A stretch of DNA of 64,000 bases from Dehalococcoidia bacterium (GTDB lineage: Bacteria; Chloroflexota; Dehalococcoidia; Lucifugimonadales; UBA6952), in NCBI GenBank assembly GCA_022450525.1, contig JAKUQA010000005.1, forward strand, positions 4,475 through 68,474. Reading direction: 5' to 3'. This document shows, piece by piece, positions 5,116 to 48,094 of this stretch; within the stretch, counting starts at the first letter, position 1, and each line of letters opens with the position of its first letter. The position numbers and the translations under genes were made by a program. A model generated the notes under the pieces. The model did no database searches, was not told where the DNA came from, and saw only the letters and a list, made by a program, of their open reading frames with translations.

Positions 5116-5580
5116 TTAATTTATAATTTTAACCATTGTAACATGTGGAATCCCCACCTCTAAAAATACATCACCCTGTACGTGATATCCATGATCTGAA
5201 TAAAATTGTTTAACATATTCTTGAGCATCCAAAGTAATTCGTGTTATACCTTCATTCAATGCTATTTCTTCTAAATAAGTTAAAATTAATCCTCCTATAC
5301 CAAATCTTCTATAATCTTTTCGAACAGCCATTCTTCCAATTCTTCCATTATTATTACCTTCTGGAATAAGCCTGCCAGTTCCAACAGGATAAGTATTAAT
5401 ACGAGCTATAGCATGAAAAGAAGTTTCATCTAATTCATCGAGTTCTTCTTCGCTAGGAACACCTTGTTCTTCAACAAAAACTTCAATTCGAATCGAAAAA
5501 CAATCTTGTTGATCTTTTTCTGTAATAGCCCGCATTACTTTTGTGTTATTTTCCATTAGCACATTATATTCTACTGTCAT
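5116..5580 (-). CDS. GNAT family N-acetyltransferase (ElaA/YjcF-like); start uncertain (5580 or 5556)
   Basis: IRIEVFVEEQGVP, GRIGRMAVRKDYRRFGIG, FLEVGIPHVTM. Confidence 0.85.
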   Translation of the reverse strand: MTVEYNVLMENNTKVMRAITEKDQQDCFSIRIEVFVEEQGVPSEEELDELDETSFHAIARINTYPVGTGRLIPEGNNNGRIGRMAVRKDYRRFGIGGLILTYLEEIALNEGITRITLDAQEYVKQFYSDHGYHVQGDVFLEVGIPHVTMVKIIN

Positions 5581-5678
5581 AAAGATTAAATACCTAGAAA
5601 GAGAATGCTTGTCAAAAAACCATTTACAGGAGTAATCTTTTATAAATAATCTTAACAATATTGAACCGAAAGGCCATA

Positions 5679-8312
5679 ATGCTTAGTTCAGAAATAAGAA
5701 GAAAATACTTAGATTTTTTTGAAAATCAAAAACATCAAATAATGCCAAGTTCTTCATTAATTCCTGCTGAAGATCCAACATTATTATTAACTACTGCTGG
5801 TATGGTTCAATTTAAACCATATTTTACTGGAGAAATTTCCACTGATATTACCAGATTCACCAGTTCTCAAAAGTGCTTCAGAGTAACTGACTTAGAAGAA
5901 GTTGGAGACGAAACTCATCTTACATTCTTTGAAATGTTAGGAAACTTTAGTATTGGTGATTATTTTAAAAAAGAAGCGATTATCTGGTCTCTTGATTTTG
6001 TAACAAACTATTTAGGACTAGAAAAAGAAAAGTTATGGGCAACTATTTATACCGATGACGATGAAGCACTTAATTTATGGATAAATGCTGGAATTCCAGC
6101 AGATAGAATTCGGAGATTCGGAGATTCTGATAATTTTTGGGGACCAGCTGGTGCAGAAGGTCCTTGTGGACCCTGTAGTGAATTGCATTATGATTTTGGT
6201 GGACCATGTACAGCAAATAATGATGATAATTGTGGACCAAATTGCTGTGCGAGATTTTTAGAATTATGGAATCTTGTCTTTATGCAATACTTTCAAGATT
6301 TGGAAGGAAATAGAACCCCATTACCTAATCCAAATATCGATACAGGAATGGGTCTTGAGAGAGCAGCAATGATTTTACAAAAAGTAAATTCACTTTATGA
6401 AACAGATTTATTTATTCCAATAATCGAAAAAGTTGAGGTTATATATAAAACAAAATATGGTTCTAATACTGATACTGATTATGCCATTAGAGTAATTGCA
6501 GAACATGTACGATCTGCGACTTTCCTTATAGCTGATGGTGTAGTTCCTAGTAATGAAGGAAGAGGTTATGTATTACGAAGATTAATAAGAAGAGCAATTA
6601 GATTTTCAAAAAAGATTTATCCTGAATCTAATGATTTATGCTTAAACCAAGTCTCAAAAACAGTCATCGAAACAATGGGTCAGCACTATCCTGATCTAAT
6701 TGCAGGAGAAGAATTTATTTATAAAGTACTAGATCAAGAAGAACTACAGTTTTCTAAAATTCTAGATCGAGGATATGACTATCTCATGCAACTGATCGAA
6801 CAAGGTATAAACAACGGTATTATACCTGGAGAAGAAATATTCAAACTACATGACACATATGGATTTCCAATTGAAGTCACCAAAGAAGTTGCTGAAGAAA
6901 ATGGTGTTAATCTTGATACCGATAATTTTGAACAATTAATGGAAGGTCAAAAAACAAAGGCTAGGTCAAGTGCTGATTTTACTGGAGATATTGAAGCAAA
7001 TAAGATATATAGCTCTATAAATTCTGAATCTTCATTTATCGGTTACGAGAAAATTGAGGGTAATTCCAAAATAATCGCAATTATCTCTAATGGTAAACAA
7101 ATTGAGAAACTTGAATCTAAAGAAAATGGAGAAATAATTCTTTCTTCTACACCCTTCTATGCCGAAGCTGGAGGTCAACTCGGCGATAAAGGATATATAC
7201 AAACTAAAACAGGTACATTTGTTGTTGAAGATACACAATCACCAATACCCGGAATAATTTCGCACAAAGGCTACGTTGCTAATGGAACAGTATTTACAAC
7301 TGAAGATAGTTCAGCAAATGTAGATAGTATTTATCGACAAGGAACTTCAAGAAATCACACAGCAACTCACATATTACATAGCAGCCTTAGAGAAATATTA
7401 GGTACACATGTGAGACAGGCAGGATCCAGTGTAGGTAATGATCGCTTAAGATTTGATTTTACTCACATTGGTAGCATGTCATTAGAAGAAATAAAGGCTG
7501 TAGAAAACCTTGCAAATACACAAGTAAGAAATAATCATTCTATTTCAACAAATATAACAACATATAGAGAAGCAGTCACTAACGGAGCTCTAGCTTTTTT
7601 TGGGGATCGTTATGGAAGCGAAGTTAGAATGGTTACAATAGCAACAGGAGAACCATTTAGTGTAGAGGTTTGTGGAGGAACGCATTTAGACAACACCGGA
7701 CAAATCGGTTATATAAAAATAATCAATGAAACTAATATTGGTTCTGGTATGCGAAGAATTGAAGCAATATCTGGAGAAACAGCTTCTGAATACTCTATAA
7801 ATGATCAATTTACACTTGCACGTATAGCTCAGATTCTTGAAACAAATATAACTACAATTGAATCCAGGCTTGATTCCTTATTACAGGAAAATAAAAACCT
7901 TAAATCAAGTTTAAATTCTTATCAACAAACACAATTTGTAAATCAAGCCAAAGAATTATCTTCAAAAATGAAAATTATCGATAATATCGAAATTATTACT
8001 AGTATGGTAAATGCTTTTACCCCACAAGATATAAAAAATATTGCAGATCTACTTAGAGATAATATTAAATCTGGAATTATTAATTTAGGAGCTATAATTG
8101 ATAATAAACCTCATACCTTACTTATAATAACGGATGACTTGGTAGAAAAAGGAGCCATTGCAGTTGCAGCAATTAAAGAATCTTCAAAATTCTTACAAGG
8201 AGGAGGCGGTGGGAAACCCAATATGGCTACTGGAGGAGGCAAAGATATCTCTAAAATAAACGAAGCAATAAATATGAATGAAGAAATAATTATCAAACAA
8301 CTGGGTGACTAA
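5679..8312 (+). CDS. alaS: Alanine--tRNA ligase
   Basis: LLLTTAGMVQFKPYF, TFFEMLGNFS, IDTGMGLER, NHTATH editing motif, EVCGGTH, GGGGG C-terminus; ATG at 5679 follows a GAAAGG RBS. Confidence 0.98.
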   Translation: MLSSEIRRKYLDFFENQKHQIMPSSSLIPAEDPTLLLTTAGMVQFKPYFTGEISTDITRFTSSQKCFRVTDLEEVGDETHLTFFEMLGNFSIGDYFKKEAIIWSLDFVTNYLGLEKEKLWATIYTDDDEALNLWINAGIPADRIRRFGDSDNFWGPAGAEGPCGPCSELHYDFGGPCTANNDDNCGPNCCARFLELWNLVFMQYFQDLEGNRTPLPNPNIDTGMGLERAAMILQKVNSLYETDLFIPIIEKVEVIYKTKYGSNTDTDYAIRVIAEHVRSATFLIADGVVPSNEGRGYVLRRLIRRAIRFSKKIYPESNDLCLNQVSKTVIETMGQHYPDLIAGEEFIYKVLDQEELQFSKILDRGYDYLMQLIEQGINNGIIPGEEIFKLHDTYGFPIEVTKEVAEENGVNLDTDNFEQLMEGQKTKARSSADFTGDIEANKIYSSINSESSFIGYEKIEGNSKIIAIISNGKQIEKLESKENGEIILSSTPFYAEAGGQLGDKGYIQTKTGTFVVEDTQSPIPGIISHKGYVANGTVFTTEDSSANVDSIYRQGTSRNHTATHILHSSLREILGTHVRQAGSSVGNDRLRFDFTHIGSMSLEEIKAVENLANTQVRNNHSISTNITTYREAVTNGALAFFGDRYGSEVRMVTIATGEPFSVEVCGGTHLDNTGQIGYIKIINETNIGSGMRRIEAISGETASEYSINDQFTLARIAQILETNITTIESRLDSLLQENKNLKSSLNSYQQTQFVNQAKELSSKMKIIDNIEIITSMVNAFTPQDIKNIADLLRDNIKSGIINLGAIIDNKPHTLLIITDDLVEKGAIAVAAIKESSKFLQGGGGGKPNMATGGGKDISKINEAINMNEEIIIKQLGD

Positions 8313-17739: not shown

Positions 17740-18844
17740 TTAGAAAGTATCATTAGAGACTTGATTTAACAGATATGATTGTAAAAAATCATTGATATTA
17801 CCATCTAATACAGAATTAGTATCGGTATCTTCATGCCCAGTTCTGTGATCTTTTACCATTTTATATGGATGTAAAACATAACTTCTAATTTGATTTCCCC
17901 ATTCTGCAGATATGTGTTCACCCTTTAATTCAGAATGTTCTTTCTCTAATTCTTTCATTCTTATATCTAGTAGTCGTGCCTTCAATATTTGCATTGCGAG
18001 TTCTTTATTCTGTAATTGTGATCTTTCATTTTGACAAACAACTACAACTCCAGTAGGTAAATGAGTTATACGTATTGCTGTAGAATTTTTCTGCACATTT
18101 TGCCCTCCATGCCCTCCAGCTCGAAAAACATCTATTCGCAAATCATCATTATCTATTGTTACATCAACATTTTTTTCTGTATCTGGTAAAACTTCAACTA
18201 ATGCAAATGATGTATGCCTTGATTTTGAAGCATCAAACGGAGATATTCTAACTAACCTATGAACCCCTTTTTCTGATTTCAAATTCCCATAAGACCATCG
18301 CCCCTTTATGGAAATAAGTACACTCTTGATACCTGCTTCATCACCTTCTGATAACTCGATTATCTCAGCAGAATAATTTTTCTTCTCTGCCCATCTTAAA
18401 TACATCCTGAGCAACATCTGAGACCAATCTTGAGATTCAGTACCTCCTGCTCCAGCATGAATTGCAAGTATAGAATTGGAATCGTCATACTCTCCTGAAA
18501 AGAGTAAATTAAATTCTACAATAGATAATTCTTCTTCCACCCTGGTAATTTCTTCAAGTAATTGTTTTTCAACCTCAACATCATCCTCATCTATGATTGA
18601 AGTTAATTCTACTAATTCACTAATATCTGACTCAAGGGAACGACACTTTTGAACAAAATTTGTTAGATCAGCTAAACGTTGCATTATCTCTTTAGCCAAT
18701 GAAGAATTGTCCCAAAAATCCCCTGCTAATGTTTTCTGTTGTAAATCTTCAATTTCTGCATCTGTTTTAGGTAAGTCAAAGACGCACCATTATATCTGCA
18801 AATTTTGATTCTAAACTAACAGACCTGTTATTTAACTCTTCCAT
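17740..18844 (-). CDS. prfB: Peptide chain release factor 2, 367 aa, translated via a +1 programmed frameshift after codon 22
   Basis: Frame 0 reads MEELNNRSVSLESKFADIMVRL-stop from ATG 18844; the +1 frame continues DLPKTDAEIEDL..DFWD; contains GAGGTESQDW, SPF and GGHGGQNV. Confidence 0.95.
18775..18790 (-). other. RF2 +1 frameshift site CTT-TGA-C with upstream SD-like sequence
   Basis: Minus strand reads ATGGTGCGT CTTTGAC; CTTTGAC at 18781-18775. Confidence 0.92.
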
Positions 18845-19010
18845 TTTAACTACTTCCTTATTTTTAATACCAACATAAATTATGCAATATATTAAATATA
18901 TTAACAACAAAGTAGGTAAGCAAAATAAATGCATCTATTTACTTGCTTTAGAAAAACATTTCTATTATATTGTGAGCACTGTAGCAATTTTACTCAATGG
19001 GGAGGTTCTG

Positions 19011-19565
19011 ATGACTGAACAACAGGCTATGTTAAGCCCTCTAACTATCTTAGATAAAATTAAAGAAAACAACGTTACTCATGTGATTTATCTGCCTGAC
19101 AGTGAGACTAATCATTTATTCATTGCCATGGAAGAAGATCCAAATATTGAAGTTATCACTGTTGGAAGAGAAGCCGAAACAATGGCCATAGCAGCAGGTG
19201 TAATTGTTGGTGGGAAAATACCAGTTTGCTTGGTGCAAAATACTGGCATGATGGAATCTGGAGATTCTATTCGTGGCCTTGGACTAGACTGTAACCTACC
19301 AATAGTTATGATTATTGGGTACCGTGGCTGGACTAGATGGGGTATAACTCCTGACTCAGCAGCAAGACTTACTGAACCAACTCTTAACGCATGGGGAATA
19401 CAATACTACCTCGTTGAACATGACGGAGATGCTGATCGAATCACACTTGCATTTCAAACTGCAGCAGCAACTCAAAAACCTGTAGCTGTTCTCGTAGGTG
19501 ATGAATATCACGGATTCAACAGAATGAATTTGGATGAAGAAAGAAAAATAATCAAAGAAGGATAA
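19011..19565 (+). CDS. comD: Sulfopyruvate/phosphonopyruvate decarboxylase alpha subunit-like (ThDP Pyr domain)
   Basis: YLPDS, GREAETMAIAAG, LVQNTGM; start reassigned to ATG 19011 behind a GGAGG RBS. Confidence 0.75.
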   Translation: MTEQQAMLSPLTILDKIKENNVTHVIYLPDSETNHLFIAMEEDPNIEVITVGREAETMAIAAGVIVGGKIPVCLVQNTGMMESGDSIRGLGLDCNLPIVMIIGYRGWTRWGITPDSAARLTEPTLNAWGIQYYLVEHDGDADRITLAFQTAAATQKPVAVLVGDEYHGFNRMNLDEERKIIKEG

Positions 19566-19614
19566 TTTATTTTATCAGACAAATGTTTATAAAATATTAG
19601 TATCGAGGTCAACT

Positions 19615-20202
19615 ATGATAAATAACGACGATTTAATGGCAGAAATAAAAAAGTTTAGAGGTAAAGCAATAGCGATACCTACTATGACTGGATCCCGTGG
19701 GTGGTTAGATTCCAGTGAACAACCATCTAGAGATGTAAGTGTTGGCGGTGCTATGGGTAAAGCTTCAAACTTTGCAATGGGATTAGCATTAGCGCAACCT
19801 GATACAAAGGTAGTTTGTTTTGATGGTGACGGAAGTCTTAATATGAATCTAGGTACGATGATGACTATTGCCGGAGCAAAACCAAAAAATCTGATTCACT
19901 TTGTACTTAATAATGGATATTTCTCAGTTACTGGTGGTCAACCTATTGCTGCAGCTGATGAAGCTAATTTTTCACAAATGGCTGCTGGAGCAGGGTATGC
20001 TGCTTCATACGAATTCGATAACATAGAGGATTTTGCTGGAAAAGTAGAAGAAATTTTCACAGCTGAAGGCCCAATTTTTGTTCATATCCATTCTGTCCCT
20101 GAAATACAAAATGAGCCAATTGGAAGACGAACTAGAGATCCCAGAAATCGTTCAACAAATGACGCCATAAAAGATCTCCGAAAAGAACTAGGCACACTTT
20201 AA
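19615..20202 (+). CDS. comE: Sulfopyruvate/phosphonopyruvate decarboxylase beta subunit-like (ThDP PP domain), copy 1
   Basis: GAMGKAS, DGDGSLNMNLG..HFVLNNG..TGGQP. Confidence 0.75.
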   Translation: MINNDDLMAEIKKFRGKAIAIPTMTGSRGWLDSSEQPSRDVSVGGAMGKASNFAMGLALAQPDTKVVCFDGDGSLNMNLGTMMTIAGAKPKNLIHFVLNNGYFSVTGGQPIAAADEANFSQMAAGAGYAASYEFDNIEDFAGKVEEIFTAEGPIFVHIHSVPEIQNEPIGRRTRDPRNRSTNDAIKDLRKELGTL

Positions 20203-20216
20203 TTTAGATATACCAA

Positions 20217-20783
20217 ATGTTGCTTGAAAATTGTCTCACCGAGCTTGGAAAATATCGTAAGAATGAAGTTGTCGTTGCTTGTGAATCAAGTAGCCATGTA
20301 TGGAATTCTGTTAGCAATAATCAAAATTTAGATATCTATTTTGAAGATTGTATGGGTAAAGGTTCCTCGCTCGGCTTAGGTATTGCTTTAGCAAAGCCCA
20401 CTAATAAAGTTATTGTTTTGGATGGCGATGGAAGTTTGTTGATGAATCTAGGTTCATTAGCAACAGTTAGCGAAATTCAGCCCCAAAATTTCATCCATTT
20501 TGTAGTCCAAAATGGTTCATATGCAGGATCAGGAAGTCAACCAATACCTTCAAGTAGCCAACTTTCCTTTTCAAAAATGGCCGATGCAGTTGGTTATGCA
20601 AAAACATTTGAATTTGATAATATCGAAGATTTCACCTTAGATCTTGAAACTATATTAAATACACCAGGACCAATATTTGTAACCTTAAAAGTAGAAAATG
20701 ATCCTAATTATATTGCTCCAAAGACAAAACATGAACTAAAAGACAGCATAGAACTTGTCAAATTACATCTAAATAATTCTTAA
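20217..20783 (+). CDS. comE: Sulfopyruvate/phosphonopyruvate decarboxylase beta subunit-like, copy 2
   Basis: CMGKGS, DGDGSLLMNLG..HFVVQNG..SGSQP. Confidence 0.72.
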   Translation: MLLENCLTELGKYRKNEVVVACESSSHVWNSVSNNQNLDIYFEDCMGKGSSLGLGIALAKPTNKVIVLDGDGSLLMNLGSLATVSEIQPQNFIHFVVQNGSYAGSGSQPIPSSSQLSFSKMADAVGYAKTFEFDNIEDFTLDLETILNTPGPIFVTLKVENDPNYIAPKTKHELKDSIELVKLHLNNS

Positions 20784-21421
20784 GCTTTATTTGGCATAAC
20801 GACTACTTTGCGGTTATACCCTGAACCATAACTTTCTGTTTTAACACCTGGGTGATCTGCTAAAGCTGTATGAATTACCCTTCGTTCCGAAGCGGTCATT
20901 GGCTCCAAAGTTATTGAACGTTTATTATTCATTACCCTATCAGCAACTTTAGCTGCCAATGTATTTAATGATTGTGATCTTCTTTCTTTATATTGTTCTA
21001 TATCTAATGTAACAAAAGAATCGACACTATTAGATCTTAATATTCTATTTAAAATAAATTGAAGTGCACTTAGATTTTCACCCTTTTTACCTATCAGCAA
21101 ACCAGCATCCTCACCCTGTATATCAATAACTGGACCTTTGTTTTTACTATTATTTACAGTCCTAATCGTTGCTAAAGCATCTACATCTAAGAAAGATAAT
21201 ATTTCATTTAGATATGTAATCGCAGTACCAGAAGCTGCAGATGAATCTCCAAGCCTAGTCACCTTAACCGTTGCTTCTGTAGCACCAATACCAAAAAGAC
21301 CTGATTTTCCTTCTGATATTATATCTATTGATACTTCATCTCTGCTTGCGTCTAGCTCTATTAGAGCTATTTCTATTGCGTCTTCTACTGTCTTGCCGCT
21401 TATTTTTATACTGTTTCTCAT
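20780..21421 (-). CDS. jag: RNA-binding protein Jag/KhpB (Jag_N, KH, R3H)
   Basis: GKTVEDAIEIAL, GLFGIG, GLLIGKKGENL, LEPMTASERRVIH. Confidence 0.95.
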   Translation of the reverse strand: MRNSIKISGKTVEDAIEIALIELDASRDEVSIDIISEGKSGLFGIGATEATVKVTRLGDSSAASGTAITYLNEILSFLDVDALATIRTVNNSKNKGPVIDIQGEDAGLLIGKKGENLSALQFILNRILRSNSVDSFVTLDIEQYKERRSQSLNTLAAKVADRVMNNKRSITLEPMTASERRVIHTALADHPGVKTESYGSGYNRKVVVMPNKA

Positions 21422-22214
21422 CTAAATCCTCCTCTTCTGAAGAAATATCTTCTTCATTTATTTTTGATGGTTTTACTGGTACAGAATTGTTTGTATCTGC
21501 ACTTGGTATCAAACCTCCCCAACCTGCAACAAAGTATTGAACTGCTATACCTACTAAATTACTTGTCATCCAATACATAGATAAGCCAGAAGGGAATTGT
21601 AAACATAAAAATCCAAACATAAATGGCATCATCCACAACATCATTTTTTGTGTCTGTTGCTGCCTAGGGTCTGTAGATTCCATCATGGACATTTTTTGCA
21701 AAACCCACATTGATCCACCTACAAATAATGCAAATAACGCTACAGGTTGTCCTAAATCTAGTCCTAAAAAGGTACTATTTAAAGGTATAGCTGTATCCAA
21801 AAATTCCAATGAATCATACATATGAGAGGTTAAACTTGCAAAATTTTCTGGAAAAGTAGGAATAAGCGCATATATACACCAATATAAACTTATCCATATG
21901 GGCATTTGAATTACCAATGGCCCCAAACAACCTAATGGACTAATTCCTTCTTCTTTATAAATTCGCATAGTTTCTTGCCCTCTACGCTGCGAATCATTTG
22001 CATATTTCTTTTGAATTGCCTGTAGTCTAGGGCCAAGTACTGCAAGCTTTTTTGTAGAACGTATTTGTTTAAGTCTTAAGGGCAACATTATTATATTTAC
22101 TATTAAAGTAAATACAATAATTGTCAGCCCAAAATTATTTCCTAAGAATGTATATAAGATTATTAAGCTATTTAGCATTGGATCAAATATCAATGCATTC
22201 CATAAATCTCCCAT
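21336..22214 (-). CDS. yidC: Membrane protein insertase YidC/Oxa1, short form without periplasmic domain
   Basis: LPLRLKQIRS, LQAIQKKY, YKEEGISPLGCLGPLVIQMPIWISLY, FPSGLSMYW; basic C-terminal tail. Confidence 0.95.
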   Translation of the reverse strand: MGDLWNALIFDPMLNSLIILYTFLGNNFGLTIIVFTLIVNIIMLPLRLKQIRSTKKLAVLGPRLQAIQKKYANDSQRRGQETMRIYKEEGISPLGCLGPLVIQMPIWISLYWCIYALIPTFPENFASLTSHMYDSLEFLDTAIPLNSTFLGLDLGQPVALFALFVGGSMWVLQKMSMMESTDPRQQQTQKMMLWMMPFMFGFLCLQFPSGLSMYWMTSNLVGIAVQYFVAGWGGLIPSADTNNSVPVKPSKINEEDISSEEEDLDEKQYKNKRQDSRRRNRNSSNRARRKQR

Positions 22215-22221
22215 AATACCT

Positions 22222-23562
22222 CTATTTCTCCGTTACTGATAAACAGCCTATTGCATCTTTATGCAAATCTTTTTTACATAAGAATTTTTTCTCACTTGAA
22301 TGAAAGTACATAGTTCTATCCATTGCCAAAGGTTCTGAAGGAATACCTTGCCATGATTCATCAGAACCATGTTTCACAGGAGAAAGCTCTACAGTATTAC
22401 TTGATTGAAAAGAACTTGAAGAAACTTCCCAAATGTTACCTGAAATAGAATCTACAATAATCAATGTGTCATCTAGTAATATTGGAGAACTAGTTATTAA
22501 AATATCTTCACCCGCTTTTTGACCTCTATTCTTTAACTGAACAGATGCCATATTTTTCTTTCGGCCTGAAGTATCTATTTCAAATTTATATAATCTTCCA
22601 TTTGTAGTGACGGTATATATTTGATTATCATTAATCAATGAGCCAGCCCAAAATCTTCCACTTGCCTTTTCAGTATCATCGAATAGCGTCGTAATAATTG
22701 ATCCATCTTTTTTATTTATCACATAGATATTTCTATCAAGAGACGTAATTATGAACATACCAGATAATGCAGATGGTTTAGATATTAAAGCAGATTTATT
22801 AGCTGTTTGAAAAAAAGTAGCATTTGGTATTTTCGTAGTTCCATCATATACATCTAAAGAATAAATTGATCCATCTAATGAAGAAAGATAAACCTTACCA
22901 GCGTCTACTAGAGGTGAATCATACATTGACCCTAATACCGACTCAGGTTGGCAAATTGCAGTAGTAACTTCTCCGTTATAGCACCATTTTATATTTCCAG
23001 TATCAATACTTATTGCCAAAATAAAACCTTTTGATGTACCCATTATAGCTAATCCATCATGTACAGTAATATTTCCAATTAAGGTATCAGGTTGATGTCT
23101 GGGTCCAAAACTTAAAAAGCTAAAAAACCCACCACTAGAATTAGCTTTGGATAAAGGGTCTATAAAATTACACCACTTTAAACTTAAATCGGGATATCTG
23201 AGTCCCACAACCAAACCGCTATAATATCCAACAACTAATGTACTATTATTGGCACTGTAAGCAGGAGTGCTATAAATAGCATCTCCAGCCTTATCCAAAT
23301 AATCTGAATCACAATTCTGGTGGCTATCCTCAGGAGAGAACTTGGCAGCTGGTCTTTGATTTTCAGATTCACCAGTCACAGGAAGTAAATTAGTATCTGC
23401 AACAAAAACCATACCTTTTTCAGACATACTAATAACAGATTCTTCAACTAAGATTGGACTTGCCCAGCCATAATCTGCTGTGAATCTGTCACTATCACAA
23501 CCTGATAAAATCACTATTGAGATTATCATCATATAAGTTAAAATGTTTTTCTTTTTAAACAT
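22222..23562 (-). CDS. PQQ-like (BamB-type) beta-propeller lipoprotein
   Basis: From ATG 23562: KKK, hydrophobic stretch, lipobox LSG-C; about 8 blade repeats such as SPLVDAGKVYLSSLDGSIYSLD and ILAISIDTGNIKW. Confidence 0.8.
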   Translation of the reverse strand: MFKKKNILTYMMIISIVILSGCDSDRFTADYGWASPILVEESVISMSEKGMVFVADTNLLPVTGESENQRPAAKFSPEDSHQNCDSDYLDKAGDAIYSTPAYSANNSTLVVGYYSGLVVGLRYPDLSLKWCNFIDPLSKANSSGGFFSFLSFGPRHQPDTLIGNITVHDGLAIMGTSKGFILAISIDTGNIKWCYNGEVTTAICQPESVLGSMYDSPLVDAGKVYLSSLDGSIYSLDVYDGTTKIPNATFFQTANKSALISKPSALSGMFIITSLDRNIYVINKKDGSIITTLFDDTEKASGRFWAGSLINDNQIYTVTTNGRLYKFEIDTSGRKKNMASVQLKNRGQKAGEDILITSSPILLDDTLIIVDSISGNIWEVSSSSFQSSNTVELSPVKHGSDESWQGIPSEPLAMDRTMYFHSSEKKFLCKKDLHKDAIGCLSVTEK

Positions 23563-23587
23563 AGATTGAAAGTCTAAATTAATTAAG

Positions 23588-23800
23588 TTACTTTGGGATC
23601 GGGTCATATCCTTTTCCACCTAAAGGGTTACATCGTAATAGTCTTTTCACTGTTAAAAAAAACCCTTTGAATGTTCCGAATTTTTTTATAGCTTCTATAG
23701 AATATTGAGAACATGTTGGTTCATATCTGCATACAGAAGGCATGTATGGTGATATTCCTTTTTGATATAACCTAATTATTTTTATTGCTACTGATGCCAC
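23588..23800 (-). CDS. yidD: Membrane protein insertion efficiency factor YidD
   Basis: YQKGISP..CRYEPTCSQYSIEAI..RLLRCNPLGGKGYDPIP. Confidence 0.96.
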   Translation of the reverse strand: MASVAIKIIRLYQKGISPYMPSVCRYEPTCSQYSIEAIKKFGTFKGFFLTVKRLLRCNPLGGKGYDPIPK

Positions 23801-23825
23801 TTTATTTCACTTACTATTTATAGGT

Positions 23826-24149
23826 TCACTGTAGTAGTTCTAATTTACCACAAATTTTTTTGAGATCTTCCGTTAATTCATCATAACTGGTATTTCTTAT
23901 TCCTACTCTTGCTACGACAACTATGTCCCATCCAGGCTTTAATTTAAAATCACCAATTATATTTTTTAGTCTTCGTTTAACCAAATTACGAGAAACTGCA
24001 GTTCCTATTCTCTTACTTATTGAATATCCTATTCTTGTGGATATTTGAGAATTTTTCTTTATCTTTACTCTCATATATCTACTTGAATAACCATAATTTA
24101 AACTATGGACTGATTTAAACTCCACCGTTTTTTTTATGGTCTTGTACAT
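23826..24149 (-). CDS. rnpA: Ribonuclease P protein component
   Basis: RIGYSISKRIGTAVSRNLVKRRLK (RNR-type motif); position after rpmH. Confidence 0.93.
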   Translation of the reverse strand: MYKTIKKTVEFKSVHSLNYGYSSRYMRVKIKKNSQISTRIGYSISKRIGTAVSRNLVKRRLKNIIGDFKLKPGWDIVVVARVGIRNTSYDELTEDLKKICGKLELLQ

Positions 24150-24205
24150 AAAATACCAATAAGCAAAATTATTATACGAAACAATACAGGATTGACTTAA
24201 TGAGG

Positions 24206-24343
24206 CTATACAGTTAGAGAATGACGACCTTTAGTGCGTCGGCGACTTAATACAGCACGACCACCTTTTGTGCTCATTCTACTTCGAAAACCGTGCACTC
24301 TAAGTCTTCTACGTTTTTTTGGTTGATAAGTTCTCTTAGGCAT
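24206..24343 (-). CDS. rpmH: 50S ribosomal protein L34 (45 aa; missing from the ORF track)
   Basis: My translation: [45 protein letters not shown]. Confidence 0.97.
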
Positions 24344-24378
24344 AACAAATTACAAAAAAATAAAAAATTTACCAACGG

Positions 24379-24408
24379 ATTATAGTTTCTATATATATAT
24401 TATGTCAA
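24379..24408 (-). promoter_or_regulatory. Consensus sigma70-type promoter of the rpmH operon
   Basis: Minus strand TTGACA (24408-24403), 18 nt spacer, TATAAT (24384-24379). Confidence 0.7.
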
Positions 24409-24467
24409 TTAATGTAACATATGATCTCTTGTGAATTTCGAAATCATTCAGATAAATATAAGTAGAT

Positions 24468-25226
24468 ATGTCGTCAAAAACAAAAAAAAGAATAGATTTT
24501 CTTGTACATGAATTAAATTTTGCAAATTCTCGATCTCATGCACAAGCTTTAATTATGGCTGGAAAGGTTTACGTAAATGATCAAAAGGTAACCAAACCAG
24601 GTACCTTATTTAACCCTGCTATTTCTACAATTAGAGTAAATCAATCAAAAAAGTTTGTTAGTCGAGGAGGGGAAAAACTTCAGCACGCTTTAGATACATT
24701 TAATATTCATATATCCGAAACCATCGCCCTTGATATTGGGGCCTCTACAGGAGGATTTACTGATTGTTTACTACAAAATGGTTCATCTAAAGTATATGCA
24801 CTTGATGTAGGTAAAAATCAATTAGATTATAAACTGCGAATCAATCCCAAAGTTGTAACTATGGAAGGAATTAATGCGAGAAATCCATTTGGTTTAGATG
24901 AAAAGGTAGATTTAATTACTATGGACGTTTCCTTTATATCCGCACGTTTATTGTTGAAGAATATTTCTACCTATTTAAAAAGTAATGGATCTATAATTTG
25001 GCTCTTAAAACCCCAATTTGAAGCTAAAAAAGAAGAGGTTGGAAGAAGAGGACTCATCAAAGATTACAAAACACATTCACTAATTATTGGAAGGCTAACA
25101 AACTGGCTAATAAATAATCAATTTTCTATCAAAAATTTCACTACTTCACCAATAAAAGGACAAACAGGAAATAAAGAATTCTTTGTACATCTAAAACTTA
25201 GTGAATACTTTCTACACGATCTTTAA
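24468..25226 (+). CDS. tlyA: TlyA family rRNA 2'-O-methyltransferase (S4 plus FtsJ domains)
   Basis: SRSHAQALIMAGKV, FVSRGGEKL, DIGASTGGFTDCLLQ, DVSFIS, KPQFE. Confidence 0.95.
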   Translation: MSSKTKKRIDFLVHELNFANSRSHAQALIMAGKVYVNDQKVTKPGTLFNPAISTIRVNQSKKFVSRGGEKLQHALDTFNIHISETIALDIGASTGGFTDCLLQNGSSKVYALDVGKNQLDYKLRINPKVVTMEGINARNPFGLDEKVDLITMDVSFISARLLLKNISTYLKSNGSIIWLLKPQFEAKKEEVGRRGLIKDYKTHSLIIGRLTNWLINNQFSIKNFTTSPIKGQTGNKEFFVHLKLSEYFLHDL

Positions 25227-43807: not shown

Positions 43808-46800
43808 GTGATTAACTGGAACAATAAATCATTTAAAAACAATGCCGGATTCATAAATAAATCTATAATAATTACAATAATAATTATAGGTTTTCTGATA
43901 CGTTTGTATGGCGTGAATTGGGATAGTGGCTATTATTTTCACCCTGACGAACGCTCCATATATATGCGTGTAGACTGCATGTACAAAGTCCTCATGAATT
44001 CTTTGGGATATCTTGATTGTATAAAAGCGCCACCATTTGAATTAACCGAGCCTGGATTGCCTTCAATACAAACGTTTTTTAATAGCGATAAAAGTCCTTT
44101 AAACCCACACTGGTTTCCATTAGGAAGCGCAATAATTTATCTTTTATTATTTTTCAAAATCCTTCTCGCTCCATTTTTCACAATTGGTGTTTATGATCTT
44201 TACCTTATAGGAAGACCACTTTCAATAATAGCTGATATAGGTTCAATGGTATTTATATATCTAATTGCTAAAAACATTTTTGGAAGCAGAGCAGCGTTGT
44301 TATCTCTTGTTCTATTTGCCTTCTTACCAACAAGTATTCAGCATAGTCACTACTATCGACCTGAACCATTTTCAGTATTTTTCATTCTAGCTAGTTTTTG
44401 GTCTATGCTTAAGTTATATAATAAACAATCCATCAAACACTATCTTTATGTTGGATTTAGTATAGGTCTCGCCCTTTCATTCAAAATCAGTGCCCTATCA
44501 CTAGGGATACCGCTTTCTATTTTGTTTCTTTTGTTTCTTATCTCTAGTATTAATTCTTCATCAATTACATTGCAGTTACATCAAATCAAATTATTCCTAA
44601 TAACAGGACTTGTCATAGTATCTACATATGTGATTATAAATCCCTATTCAATATTAGATTTTCAAGAATTTTGGGAATGGAATACTAGGGAAATTAACAT
44701 TGTAAATACTGCAGGTATAGTTCCATATACTATTCAATATTTAAATACACCAAATTTTATTTATGAATTTCTGCAAACAACGAAATGGAACATTGGATTA
44801 CTTACAGGTGTCTCTCTATGGATATTATTCATATCAGCAATAATTTATAACTTTAGATATCCCAAAATTAATGAAATTCTTCTTTTAGTCTGGGGCTTTG
44901 CATACTTCATAACTATTGCAACAGTAGAAGTTAAATTTTCTCGATATATGTATCCTCTTATACCAATAATGATAATTATAGGTTCAGGATATTTATTCAA
45001 AGTACAATATTATCTAAGTCAAAAAAAGAATCTTTTTCATCCAGTTTTTTCGATACTCATTGTAATACTCACCACATCGTCAGTTTTATACGGTCTAGCA
45101 TATACAAATATCTATACAAACGACCATACAGCTGTTCAAGCGAGTAAATGGATCAATGAAAATATTCCAAAAGGAACGAAAATTATTAATGATAATCATT
45201 GGGATGAATCCATCCCTGATATTTATGGTTATCAAATAAAGCAAATACCTATATTTGAATCTGATACACAAGATAAAGGATTTAATATAGCGATAGATTT
45301 GTCATCCTCTGAGTACTTAATCTTTTATAGTAATAGAACATACAATGCTATATTTAATAATTCATCCCGATATCCAATTAGCGCTTCATATTACGATAGT
45401 CTTTTTAATGAAAAATTAGGATATTCACTCGTTAAATCATTTACTCAATATCCAGAAATTGCAGGTATCCATTTTCAACATGATACTTTCTCCATCAATG
45501 ATATACCTACACCTATTGGCTTTCCAACAGATGACAAATCTGGACTTAATTTAAACCTAGGTTATGGTGACAACGACATTGTAAATTATGATCATCCAGT
45601 AGTATTAATTTTTGAAAATATCCAAAAATATAAACCAGATAGAATATATCAAACTATTTATAGTGGACGAACAAATTACCCGTCCGAATTAAATTCTGTG
45701 CTTAATACTGAAGACAGAATAATAAATAGTAACGGTGGAACTTGGAATAATATTTTCTCTGAAAATATATTAGCTCAAAAATTGCCAATTTTATCATGGT
45801 TTATCCTATTAGAAATTCTATCAATTCTTTTGTTACCTATTTCCCTAATAATCTTTCGGGGTTTACCAGATAAAGGATTTGGAATCAACAAATTACTTTC
45901 ACTATTTGTAATCGCATATATTACATGGATATTTGTTTATTTAAATATCCTTACATTTACAATATTCTCGATCATATTAATCACAGTTATACTTAGCGCT
46001 ATTTCGATAAGAGTATTTTTTAGAAATAAAGACTATATAATCACAACAACTAAAAATAATATCAAAATATTTGTTCTAGAAGATTTGATATTTCTTTCAG
46101 CCTTTGCATTATTTGTACTAATTCGATGGTTTAATCCCGATTTATGGCATCCATATCTAGGAGGGGAAAAACCAATGGATTTTGCCTATCTTAATGCAAT
46201 TATAAAATCAACAACCATGCCTCCGTATGATCCATGGTTTGCCGGTGGTTATATCAATTATTATTATTTTGGACAGTTCTTTATAGCTGTTTACATTATC
46301 CTTTCTGGTATTCTTCCAGAAATCGCATACAATCTTGCTATCCCAAGTTTGTATGCTTTTACTACAGTTCTCTCATTCTCAGTTGGATATAATATTTATT
46401 CGCTGTATCGAGAGAAAACAAATTTCAACAGATCATCAGTATTTGCAGGTTTAATGTCTCTATTCCTCATAACATTATCAGGTAATTTTGGAATACTTTT
46501 TCAAATTATTGATAATCCAAGTTATCTCATGAATCCAACGCGATTTGACTGGTGGGGACCAAGCAGAATGATGGAACCACAATTTAGTATCACAGAATTC
46601 CCTTTTTGGACCTTTTTATTCGCTGATTTACATGCTCATTTAATCGCCCTTCCATTTACCATACTAACAATACTTGTAGGTTTAAATGTTTGTACTAACT
46701 TACTAAAACAGGAGAGAATTTTTACGAAAAAATTCATCGCGAGTTTTTTATCTTTTGCACTAATATTGGGATCTCTTTCCGTAATTAACACCTGGGATTA

Positions 46801-48094
46801 TCCAACCTATTTAGTTATATCCTTATTTTTTATATTTATTGGGATTTTTACTTCACTATCATCGATTCAACAAACAATTACAAAACTCATCTTAATTTCT
46901 TCGTCACTTATTACTATTTCATACCTGTTATATCTACCATATCATTTGGATAATACAATCTACACGTCAGGATTCCATCTGAGTAATGAACAAACAAATA
47001 TTGCTGATTTTCTATCGATATATGGATTTTTTCTTTTCATACTTCTTTCATATTTTCTTCTGAAAACACTCAGCTTTTACACATCTTTACCTATCCCCAG
47101 AAACCTAATTATCCCAATTAGTATTATTCTTATTTCGGCAATTACGGTGATCCTATCTTTCACACTATATTTTGGATATTTTACTGTTGGTATTATTGTC
47201 ATTTTAATAATAATCCTTAAATTAATGATTCCAGATTTATATATAAATTCCTTAGGAAATCGATACTATTTATTTCCTCTGTTTTTCATATTACTTTCGT
47301 TGAGTATTTGTATTTTTGTTGACATATTTACTATAGATAATGATATAAATCGAATGAACACAGTCTTTAAGTTCTACAATCAAGCATGGATTCTCTTTTC
47401 TATTGGCTCTGCATTTTTACTCACTATATTACTCGAATCTATAAATTCTAAATTAATATTTAATAACCGAATTGTTACATTCTTTTGGATATTTTTACTT
47501 GGATTTTTTGTTATAAATGCATCTTTATTTGCTATATTTGGTACAACCTCAAGAGTAAATAATCGATTTACCACAGAATTCAAAAGTTTAAATGGTATGG
47601 AATTTATGCAATACGCATCGTATACAGATACTAAAGCACCTCTCTGGAATCCTGAAATGGATGGTTTAAATTTAAACCATGATTTAGAAGGTATTATGTG
47701 GATACGAGATAATATACCAGGATCACCTGTTATAGCTGAAGCTACTACTGAACCTCATAGATATATGTGGGGTAACCGCATATCAATATATACGGGAAAT
47801 CCTACAGTCATCGGATGGGGATGGCATCAAACACAACAAAGAACATCCGGAGAGTCTATTGAAGAAATAAACACAAGGATCCAAGATGTAAAAGTTTTCT
47901 TTTCAACAGAAAATAAAAAATTGGCCCAAGATATAGCAGAAAAATATAATATTGAATATATTTATGTTGGGGAATTAGAAAAAATTTATTATCCCAAAGA
48001 GGGTCTAGATAAATTTGATTTGATGATCCAGCAAGGATTTAAGAAAATTTATTATAAAAATGGTTTTTCAGTTTACAAGATTGAACTATCGTAA
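43808..48094 (+). CDS. Very large DUF2298/YYY-type polytopic membrane protein with two GT-C-like glycosyltransferase modules
   Basis: 1428 aa; module 1 FHPDER..PHWFPLG; module 2 PDLWHPYLGGEKPMDFAYLNA, TEFPFWTFLFADLHAH, NTVFKFY; DUF2298 call is from motif recall. Confidence 0.8.
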   Translation: MINWNNKSFKNNAGFINKSIIITIIIIGFLIRLYGVNWDSGYYFHPDERSIYMRVDCMYKVLMNSLGYLDCIKAPPFELTEPGLPSIQTFFNSDKSPLNPHWFPLGSAIIYLLLFFKILLAPFFTIGVYDLYLIGRPLSIIADIGSMVFIYLIAKNIFGSRAALLSLVLFAFLPTSIQHSHYYRPEPFSVFFILASFWSMLKLYNKQSIKHYLYVGFSIGLALSFKISALSLGIPLSILFLLFLISSINSSSITLQLHQIKLFLITGLVIVSTYVIINPYSILDFQEFWEWNTREINIVNTAGIVPYTIQYLNTPNFIYEFLQTTKWNIGLLTGVSLWILFISAIIYNFRYPKINEILLLVWGFAYFITIATVEVKFSRYMYPLIPIMIIIGSGYLFKVQYYLSQKKNLFHPVFSILIVILTTSSVLYGLAYTNIYTNDHTAVQASKWINENIPKGTKIINDNHWDESIPDIYGYQIKQIPIFESDTQDKGFNIAIDLSSSEYLIFYSNRTYNAIFNNSSRYPISASYYDSLFNEKLGYSLVKSFTQYPEIAGIHFQHDTFSINDIPTPIGFPTDDKSGLNLNLGYGDNDIVNYDHPVVLIFENIQKYKPDRIYQTIYSGRTNYPSELNSVLNTEDRIINSNGGTWNNIFSENILAQKLPILSWFILLEILSILLLPISLIIFRGLPDKGFGINKLLSLFVIAYITWIFVYLNILTFTIFSIILITVILSAISIRVFFRNKDYIITTTKNNIKIFVLEDLIFLSAFALFVLIRWFNPDLWHPYLGGEKPMDFAYLNAIIKSTTMPPYDPWFAGGYINYYYFGQFFIAVYIILSGILPEIAYNLAIPSLYAFTTVLSFSVGYNIYSLYREKTNFNRSSVFAGLMSLFLITLSGNFGILFQIIDNPSYLMNPTRFDWWGPSRMMEPQFSITEFPFWTFLFADLHAHLIALPFTILTILVGLNVCTNLLKQERIFTKKFIASFLSFALILGSLSVINTWDYPTYLVISLFFIFIGIFTSLSSIQQTITKLILISSSLITISYLLYLPYHLDNTIYTSGFHLSNEQTNIADFLSIYGFFLFILLSYFLLKTLSFYTSLPIPRNLIIPISIILISAITVILSFTLYFGYFTVGIIVILIIILKLMIPDLYINSLGNRYYLFPLFFILLSLSICIFVDIFTIDNDINRMNTVFKFYNQAWILFSIGSAFLLTILLESINSKLIFNNRIVTFFWIFLLGFFVINASLFAIFGTTSRVNNRFTTEFKSLNGMEFMQYASYTDTKAPLWNPEMDGLNLNHDLEGIMWIRDNIPGSPVIAEATTEPHRYMWGNRISIYTGNPTVIGWGWHQTQQRTSGESIEEINTRIQDVKVFFSTENKKLAQDIAEKYNIEYIYVGELEKIYYPKEGLDKFDLMIQQGFKKIYYKNGFSVYKIELS

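Follow-up and report, generated by a model that had tools for sequence, protein, structure and literature searches.

Background

The membrane protein insertase YidC is usually described as acting alone or together with SecYEG, and we know of no dedicated extracytoplasmic partner of a bacterial YidC. In diderm bacteria its five-helix core is accompanied by P1, a beta-supersandwich domain carried in cis, and in Firmicutes (SpoIIIJ/YidC2) by a lipid-anchored N-terminus that is likewise part of YidC itself. Another membrane-protein insertion machine, the BAM complex of diderms, is served by the lipoprotein BamB (YfgL; 392 amino acids (aa)), in which an N-terminal lipobox and a short tether precede a cofactor-free, eight-bladed PQQ_2 propeller. 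In the endoplasmic reticulum (ER) membrane protein complex (EMC), EMC3, a member of the Oxa1/YidC superfamily, is paired on the exoplasmic side with EMC1, which carries a propeller of repeats of the pyrroloquinoline quinone (PQQ) type (PMC6362398). Here we describe a gene for a PQQ-type propeller lipoprotein that stands between yidD and yidC in a stretch of 64,000 nucleotides (nt) of one Dehalococcoidia contig, hereafter the window, and that recurs at the same place throughout the class.

The window propeller has in common with BamB the lipobox, the short tether and a cofactor-free eight-bladed PQQ_2 propeller of ~360-390 residues, and the service to a membrane-protein insertion machine that is established for BamB is what we propose for it. 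It differs from BamB in its sequence (identity ~15-20%, with scores below the BamB equivalog models), in its host class, which is regarded as single-membraned, with no BamA/POTRA partner, in the position of its gene between yidD and yidC rather than in a bam context, and in the signatures of its own family, C-x(7-11)-GW[SG]G and W[FY]W. The EMC1-EMC3 pair has the same architecture as the proposed YidC-propeller pair, as an analogy rather than a demonstrated homology; EMC1, however, spans the membrane as a type I protein of ~1000 aa, carries two propellers and belongs to a complex of 9-10 subunits, and the window family has no specific sequence affinity to it, its matches to the EMC1 propeller model being those of any PQQ-like protein. 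Where the YidCs of diderms and Firmicutes carry an extracytoplasmic or lipid-anchored element on the five-helix core, the window YidC has neither P1 nor a Firmicutes-type anchor, and the gene for the lipobox-bearing propeller immediately precedes it; the element proposed here would be a separate polypeptide of another fold, acting in trans. Quinoprotein alcohol and glucose dehydrogenases share with the window propeller the blade motif (Pfam PQQ/PQQ_2) and the eight-bladed fold, but they are proteins of ~600 aa with PQQ/Ca2+ sites, whereas the window propeller is of the size of BamB.

Results and discussion

Distribution of the propeller gene in Dehalococcoidia

A propeller gene placed before yidC across the whole class suggests an undescribed helper of YidC at the outer face of the membrane. 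Close homologs of the window propeller are few (99, 88 and 80% identity, after which identity falls to 23%) and the survey was therefore anchored on YidC: one genome per GTDB species was scanned with a YidC alignment, the best 80 loci were retained, and their six-frame open reading frames (ORFs) were searched with the window proteins. All 80 loci (given, like further contigs, as L numbers) are labelled Dehalococcoidia, SAR202 or Chloroflexota, and their YidCs are 41-95% identical to that of the window. Since the contig of L038 begins at yidC, 79 loci are informative, and 78 of these have a propeller ortholog in the place between yidD and yidC, even though the propellers themselves are only ~20-25% identical across the surveyed loci. 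Recurrence in so many species genomes shows that the arrangement is not due to chance. The sequence-only reading of this DNA, which had proposed the propeller as an accessory of YidC, had counted absence of the gene from this position in related genomes as evidence against itself; the gene proved to be in place in these species loci and on additional contigs as well.

Using a hidden Markov model (HMM) of the family, we found a single propeller member at each locus, and only the one copy in the whole 64-kb window. From the propeller stop codon to the yidC start the median distance is 18 nt, and 75% of cases have 34 nt or less; co-location with yidC, in a spacing that is suited to co-transcription, is thus conserved across divergent genomes. 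The same gene order was seen in near-identical relatives of the window (L001 and L002), in a soil contig of high GC content (L084), in L128-L131 and on the contigs of 15 metagenome orthologs that were found with the consensus of the family HMM. In all, ~20 metagenome contigs repeat the arrangement. Other high-scoring metagenome matches, which have no yidC beside them (L099-L102), were set aside as generic, internally repetitive PQQ proteins in which neither a lipobox nor the GW motif was detected.

The pair also persists at loci where the rest of the operon does not. In L003 the break lies upstream of the propeller gene: yidD is absent and a divergent secreted repeat protein is encoded 5' of the pair, in which yidC still comes directly after the propeller gene; in L131 jag is missing and the propeller-yidC pair is intact.

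A propeller with a predicted lipid anchor and a short tether

The propeller gene (minus strand, as are all genes of the operon) occupies positions 22222..23562 of the window when read from the ATG at 23562, giving a protein of 446 aa; the longest ORF is 22222..23619. Its start is ambiguous between GTG 23619, ATG 23607 and ATG 23562, and the choice leaves the mature protein unchanged, the two upstream starts merely extending the n-region of the signal peptide. The NCBI copy of the window protein, labelled 'PQQ-like beta-propeller repeat protein [SAR202 cluster bacterium]', is the 446-aa form beginning with MFKKK, and ATG 23562 is most likely the start.

From this ATG the N-terminus reads MFKKKNILTYMMIISIVILSGC, with the lipobox L-S-G-C, and is laid out as MFKKK-NILTYMMIISIVIL-SGC, which agrees with the lipobox pattern [LVI][ASTVI][GAS]C; by these features it is predicted to be a textbook Sec-type signal peptide of type II (lipoprotein), which spans 23497..23562 (minus strand) with the lipobox ILSGC and the codon of Cys22 at 23499..23497. 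The assignment as a lipoprotein with lipobox LSGC, already made from the sequence alone, is strongly supported by the orthologs: the lipobox Cys is invariant in all 76 that were aligned, G, A or S stands at position -1 in 75/75 and L at position -3 in 41/75, while the 11 residues before the Cys are strongly hydrophobic, with a mean hydropathy of 2.7 for the h-region. No gene for Lgt or LspA was found among the window ORFs examined, which lie within 64 kb of the genome.

Between the lipobox Cys and the first conserved Trp, which sits in a near-invariant G-W-[SG]-G, there are 7-12 residues in 69 of 75 orthologs, and with so short a tether the propeller must sit near the membrane surface. The mature protein has ~424 aa in the window and ~360-430 aa across the family. 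Residues C22, G32, P100, Y234, W305 and P360 are invariant.

The mature window propeller has six further Cys, at positions 84, 131, 194, 204, 429 and 440, from which three possible disulfides had been proposed. The six residues are indeed present, but they are kept only in relatives of 80-99% identity, so that as a trait of the family they were rejected and must be regarded as genus-specific. What does extend over the family is parity: the number of Cys in the mature part is even (0, 2, 4 or 6) in 72/76 orthologs. In 37 of the 76 (from L004-L083; for example L026, L032, L055 and L083) the protein ends in a C-terminal Cys, and in 30 of these 37 the last blades hold another Cys, within a C-x-[IVLM]-[GDNKE] motif. 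The even counts suggest disulfides in the orthologs and, together with the possible pairing of the C-terminal Cys, would fit an extracytoplasmic, disulfide-forming location.

Fold and family membership

The window propeller matches Pfam PQQ_2 (PF13360) with an E-value of 1.4e-13 and 51.5-52.2 bits, above the gathering threshold of 27.6. All of the 20 orthologs scanned match the same model (best E-value 8e-61), and 19 of them also match Pfam PQQ repeats. AlphaFold2 folds both the window propeller (predicted local distance difference test (pLDDT) 78, predicted template modelling (pTM) score 0.80) and a typical ortholog, P0004 (pLDDT 84.5), into eight four-stranded blades, which bears out the earlier estimate of about eight PQQ-type blades. 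With its lipobox, the window protein accordingly has the two general features of BamB, a lipoprotein signal and an eight-bladed fold.

Using Foldseek against the PDB, we found that places 1-36 for the window model are all BamB chains (E-value 2.5e-19, template modelling (TM) score ~0.7). For P0004, designed eight-bladed propellers come first and BamB is the best natural match, with a TM score of ~0.8, a root-mean-square deviation (rmsd) of 2-3 A and 20% identity; a cofactor-less tetrathionate hydrolase comes next after BamB, with a TM score of ~0.62-0.69. No chain of a quinoprotein dehydrogenase or of EMC1 is among the top 50 matches of either model.

The comparison with BamB and EMC1 that had been drawn from the sequence therefore has to be divided. 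'BamB-like' holds insofar as BamB is the closest natural solved structure, and does not hold at the level of equivalogs, as the window propeller scores 38.7 bits against a cut-off of 285.2 for TIGR03300 and 34.1 against 423 for NF008351. 'EMC1-like' found no specific support: neither EMC1 model (PF25293, Beta-prop_EMC1_N, and PF07774, EMC1_C) matches the window propeller, PF25293 matches 3 of 20 orthologs with a best E-value of 0.001, far more weakly than PQQ_2 matches these same orthologs, and with matches so marginal the resemblance to EMC1 is architectural and not specific. On the Pfam and Foldseek results together, a specific relationship to EMC1 is not supported.

A profile search of 1.84 billion protein representatives returned 71,425 sequences of the PQQ_2 type at E<=1e-3, among which giant multi-propeller proteins dominate, so that this figure is a measure of the superfamily and not a count of orthologs. 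Within this superfamily the window propeller and its orthologs are a new, deeply conserved branch of BamB-like PQQ_2 lipoproteins.

The neighbouring YidC

The yidC gene (21336..22214, minus strand) encodes an insertase core of 292 aa that is recognised by 60KD_IMP (E-value 2.9e-48; 164.4 bits, threshold 35) and by TIGR03592 (1.4e-51; 175.3 bits, threshold 84.3). It aligns solely to residues 332-531 of E. coli YidC, that is, to the five-helix core, and in this alignment the first transmembrane helix (TM1) and the P1 domain are absent. The statement that this YidC has no extracytoplasmic domain is thus correct as regards P1, but overlooks a conserved insertion: the outer loop formed by residues ~119-153 (21756..21860, minus strand), seen as a gap in the alignment, is ~20 residues longer than its counterpart in E. 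coli YidC. Eight positions in or next to it, P122, E123, L128, Y133, P144, F149, L150 and L154, do not vary among 20 Dehalococcoidia YidCs. The C-terminal tail of the window YidC is strongly basic.

Organisation of the operon and its surroundings

Exactly 7 nt separate the stop codon of the propeller gene, TAG at 22224..22222, from the yidC ATG at 22214, as had been noted before. Stop codon and spacer (22215..22224, minus strand) contain a Shine-Dalgarno-like AGAGG for yidC which overlaps the stop codon, and this overlap makes translational coupling of the two genes plausible.

Upstream lie yidD (23588..23800), for the membrane protein insertion efficiency factor of 70 aa (Pfam YidD 1.2e-29; TIGR00278 3.3e-23), rnpA (23826..24149), for the RNase P protein component of 107 aa (Pfam Ribonuclease_P 2.7e-20), and rpmH (24209..24343), for the ribosomal protein L34 of 44 aa, identified by its translation and with homologs in 77 loci. 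Directly 5' of rpmH, at 24379..24408 (minus strand), there is a promoter-like site, TTGACA-18-TATAAT, which agrees with the sigma-70 consensus at 12/12 positions and is the only such site within 20400..24700; from there down to jag the window sequence holds no convincing terminator. As far as these signals allow a prediction, the propeller gene, yidD and yidC share one transcription unit. The operon ends with jag/khpB (20780..21421, 213 aa; Pfam Jag_N, KH_KhpA-B and R3H), whose ATG lies 86 nt within the 3' end of yidC (21336-21421), in the region coding for the basic C-terminal tail; overlaps of jag and yidC of ~100 nt are found in most Dehalococcoidia loci by longest-ORF calls. Every gene of the rpmH-rnpA-yidD-yidC-jag operon with its extra gene, as first described, was confirmed by Pfam or NCBIfam.

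Convergent to jag, at 18882-20783 (plus strand), three adjacent short ORFs encode separate thiamine-diphosphate enzyme parts, one TPP_enzyme_N and two TPP_enzyme_C, and are kept in the close relatives L001 and L002. Beyond them prfB, the gene for release factor 2 (17740-18843, minus strand), carries at 18775-18781 the sequence CTT TGA C, the classical site for programmed +1 frameshifting: its first 22 codons (MEELNNRSVSLESKFADIMVRL) lie in one frame, and the rest, an ORF of 319 aa, is in the +1 frame. Elsewhere in the window, 43808-48094 (plus strand) encodes a membrane protein of 1428 aa with a PMT_2 glycosyltransferase-like region and DUF2298.

A cultured relative

Two strains of Dehalococcoides mccartyi allow the locus to be followed in the published record. 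In strain 195, DET1041 is annotated as 'PQQ enzyme repeat domain protein', and expression data tie it to DET1039, the 'SpoIIIJ-associated protein Jag' (PMC5102406). In strain CBDB1, rnpA (cbdbA1017) is followed by the genes for an 'uncharacterized protein' (cbdbA1016), for YidC, the 60-kDa inner membrane protein (cbdbA1015), and for Jag (cbdbA1014), and proteome data give quantities for both cbdbA1016 and cbdbA1015 (supplements to PMC7918482). We infer that cbdbA1016 is the propeller ortholog from where it lies and from the annotation in strain 195; by the same evidence the propeller gene appears to be kept in the reduced genome of this species and its protein appears to be expressed, so that the question of its function is directly testable in a cultured organism.

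Full-text literature searches found no description of an association of YidC with a propeller, and the part of a Dehalococcoides complexome supplement that was available to us has no relevant entry. The fixed place of the propeller before YidC across a whole monoderm class thus appears to be undescribed.

Possible roles of the propeller

Our preferred explanation, to which we give a probability of about 0.45 and thus slightly less than even odds, is that the propeller serves YidC as an accessory or scaffold outside the cytoplasm. The protein would be exported, lipidated at its invariant Cys and kept on the outer side of the one cytoplasmic membrane, and it would be produced together with YidC, probably in step. 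There it might receive or hold the exported loops of freshly inserted membrane proteins or, alternatively, organise YidC with other envelope partners; in either case it would give in trans what P1 gives in cis to the YidC of diderms and the lipid-anchored N-terminus to that of Firmicutes, and the class-conserved 20-residue insertion in the outer loop of YidC would be a candidate contact or docking site. Gene order in the surveyed loci suggests such a role, by a synteny that is maintained despite the low identity of the propellers, by the tight gap and single copy, and by the propeller staying with yidC when the operon breaks upstream (L003) or loses jag (L131). The BamB-like fold, and a YidC that consists of the core alone and has an insertion in its outer loop, point the same way, as do the invariant lipobox with its short tether, the even Cys counts, the single promoter with no terminator inside the operon, and the apparent retention of the gene in D. 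mccartyi. A stronger version, in which the core-only YidC is permanently partnered by a dedicated, outer-face, lipid-anchored BamB-like propeller as a two-component YidC holo-insertase, the bacterial counterpart of EMC3-EMC1, is more tentative and in our view less likely than not. A physical YidC-propeller complex is to be regarded as a candidate only, and the interpretation given by the sequence-only reading as partly supported.

Several observations weigh against a role with YidC, and most of them are what would be expected of an operon passenger, an envelope lipoprotein unrelated to YidC (for example one that helps to assemble the S-layer or the cell surface, or one that scaffolds other exported proteins) that was inserted once in an ancestor of the Dehalococcoidia and has been retained since a highly expressed operon seldom rearranges. 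The order rpmH-rnpA-yidD-yidC-jag is conserved across Bacteria, and it is fixed even though rpmH and rnpA are functionally unrelated to YidC, as is jag on this view; because of this, a conserved position is weak evidence for a complex. Mirror-tree comparison over 69 taxa gave no covariation specific to YidC: the correlation (r) of the propeller is 0.70 for YidC, likewise 0.70 for rnpA, and 0.72 for jag, and its partial r is lower for YidC (0.28) than for rnpA (0.45). The conserved residues of the propeller are mainly those of the generic blade motif, and PQQ_2 propellers are an enormous and functionally diverse superfamily, as the 71,425 representatives illustrate. Propeller and yidC are also separable. 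In L041 (4923-6927; OY760867.2), the only surveyed genome with a yidC that lacks a propeller neighbour, yidC-jag is preceded by gap (GAPDH), and rpmH, rnpA, yidD and the propeller are all missing within 6 kb of it; in L074, two tandem paralogous small genes of 123 and 155 aa (5122-5939), unrelated to the pair, lie between propeller and yidC, the sole such insertion among the 80 species loci. Nor do gene fusions help: an apparent fusion of YidD with the propeller in one ORF (L009, 4634-5971) was rejected as a Rosetta-stone link, since alignment with four close relatives shows that a C-run in this long-read assembly is longer by a single C, most likely a homopolymer indel artefact, and no fused propeller-YidC protein was seen in the surveyed loci.

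A mere passenger, on the other hand, would not be expected to have inserted precisely between two membrane-insertion genes, to have remained so tightly packed against yidC over deep divergence, to have stayed with yidC at the two loci that lost the upstream or the downstream part of the operon, or to be held at one copy per locus and apparently even in reduced genomes. We regard a passenger as the main rival, a serious possibility that nevertheless falls well short of even odds. An extracytoplasmic enzyme, be it a PQQ-dependent dehydrogenase or, like tetrathionate hydrolase, a hydrolase that has the PQQ-like fold but no cofactor, is improbable. Pfam PQQ repeats in nearly all of the orthologs scanned and the rank of tetrathionate hydrolase among the top structural matches of P0004 could be read in its favour, but BamB outranks the enzymes with better TM score and rmsd, and the model for PQQ alcohol dehydrogenases, TIGR03075, gives the window propeller 22.5 bits, over residues 185-262 only, against a cut-off of 480.05. 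A protein of the size of BamB has no space for quinoprotein active-site insertions, no invariant polar residue lies outside the blade motif, and the position in a housekeeping operon gives no hint of a catabolic role; the proposal of an accessory protein, which its authors would have given up for a PQQ-dependent dehydrogenase, survives on this point. Still more improbable, to the point that we would be surprised by it, is a true BamB belonging to a cryptic machine for the assembly of outer-membrane beta-barrels, which would make the lineage diderm after all. Lipidation, eight blades and BamB as the best natural solved-structure match are what such a protein would show, but the protein falls far short of the cut-offs of both BamB equivalog models, and the Chloroflexota are generally regarded as monoderm and without BamA. 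No bam gene is nearby, a Pfam scan of the 20 larger flanking ORFs of the window found no Bam-like domain, and the propeller gene is part of the yidC operon. Such probability as is left belongs to explanations other than the accessory role and these three rivals.

Significance

If the propeller is indeed an accessory of YidC, a class-wide, operon-encoded propeller lipoprotein would be a new type of subunit for the YidC/Oxa1 family and would offer a simple bacterial model for the lumenal propellers of EMC1, which are poorly understood. It would also give a role to an uncharacterised but conserved 'PQQ-like repeat protein' of the SAR202 bacteria, which are abundant in the ocean, and of the bioremediation organism Dehalococcoides. 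In the stronger, two-component version it would mean that a design of propeller plus insertase recurs at the outer membrane (BamA-BamB), in the ER (EMC) and at the plasma membrane of monoderms.

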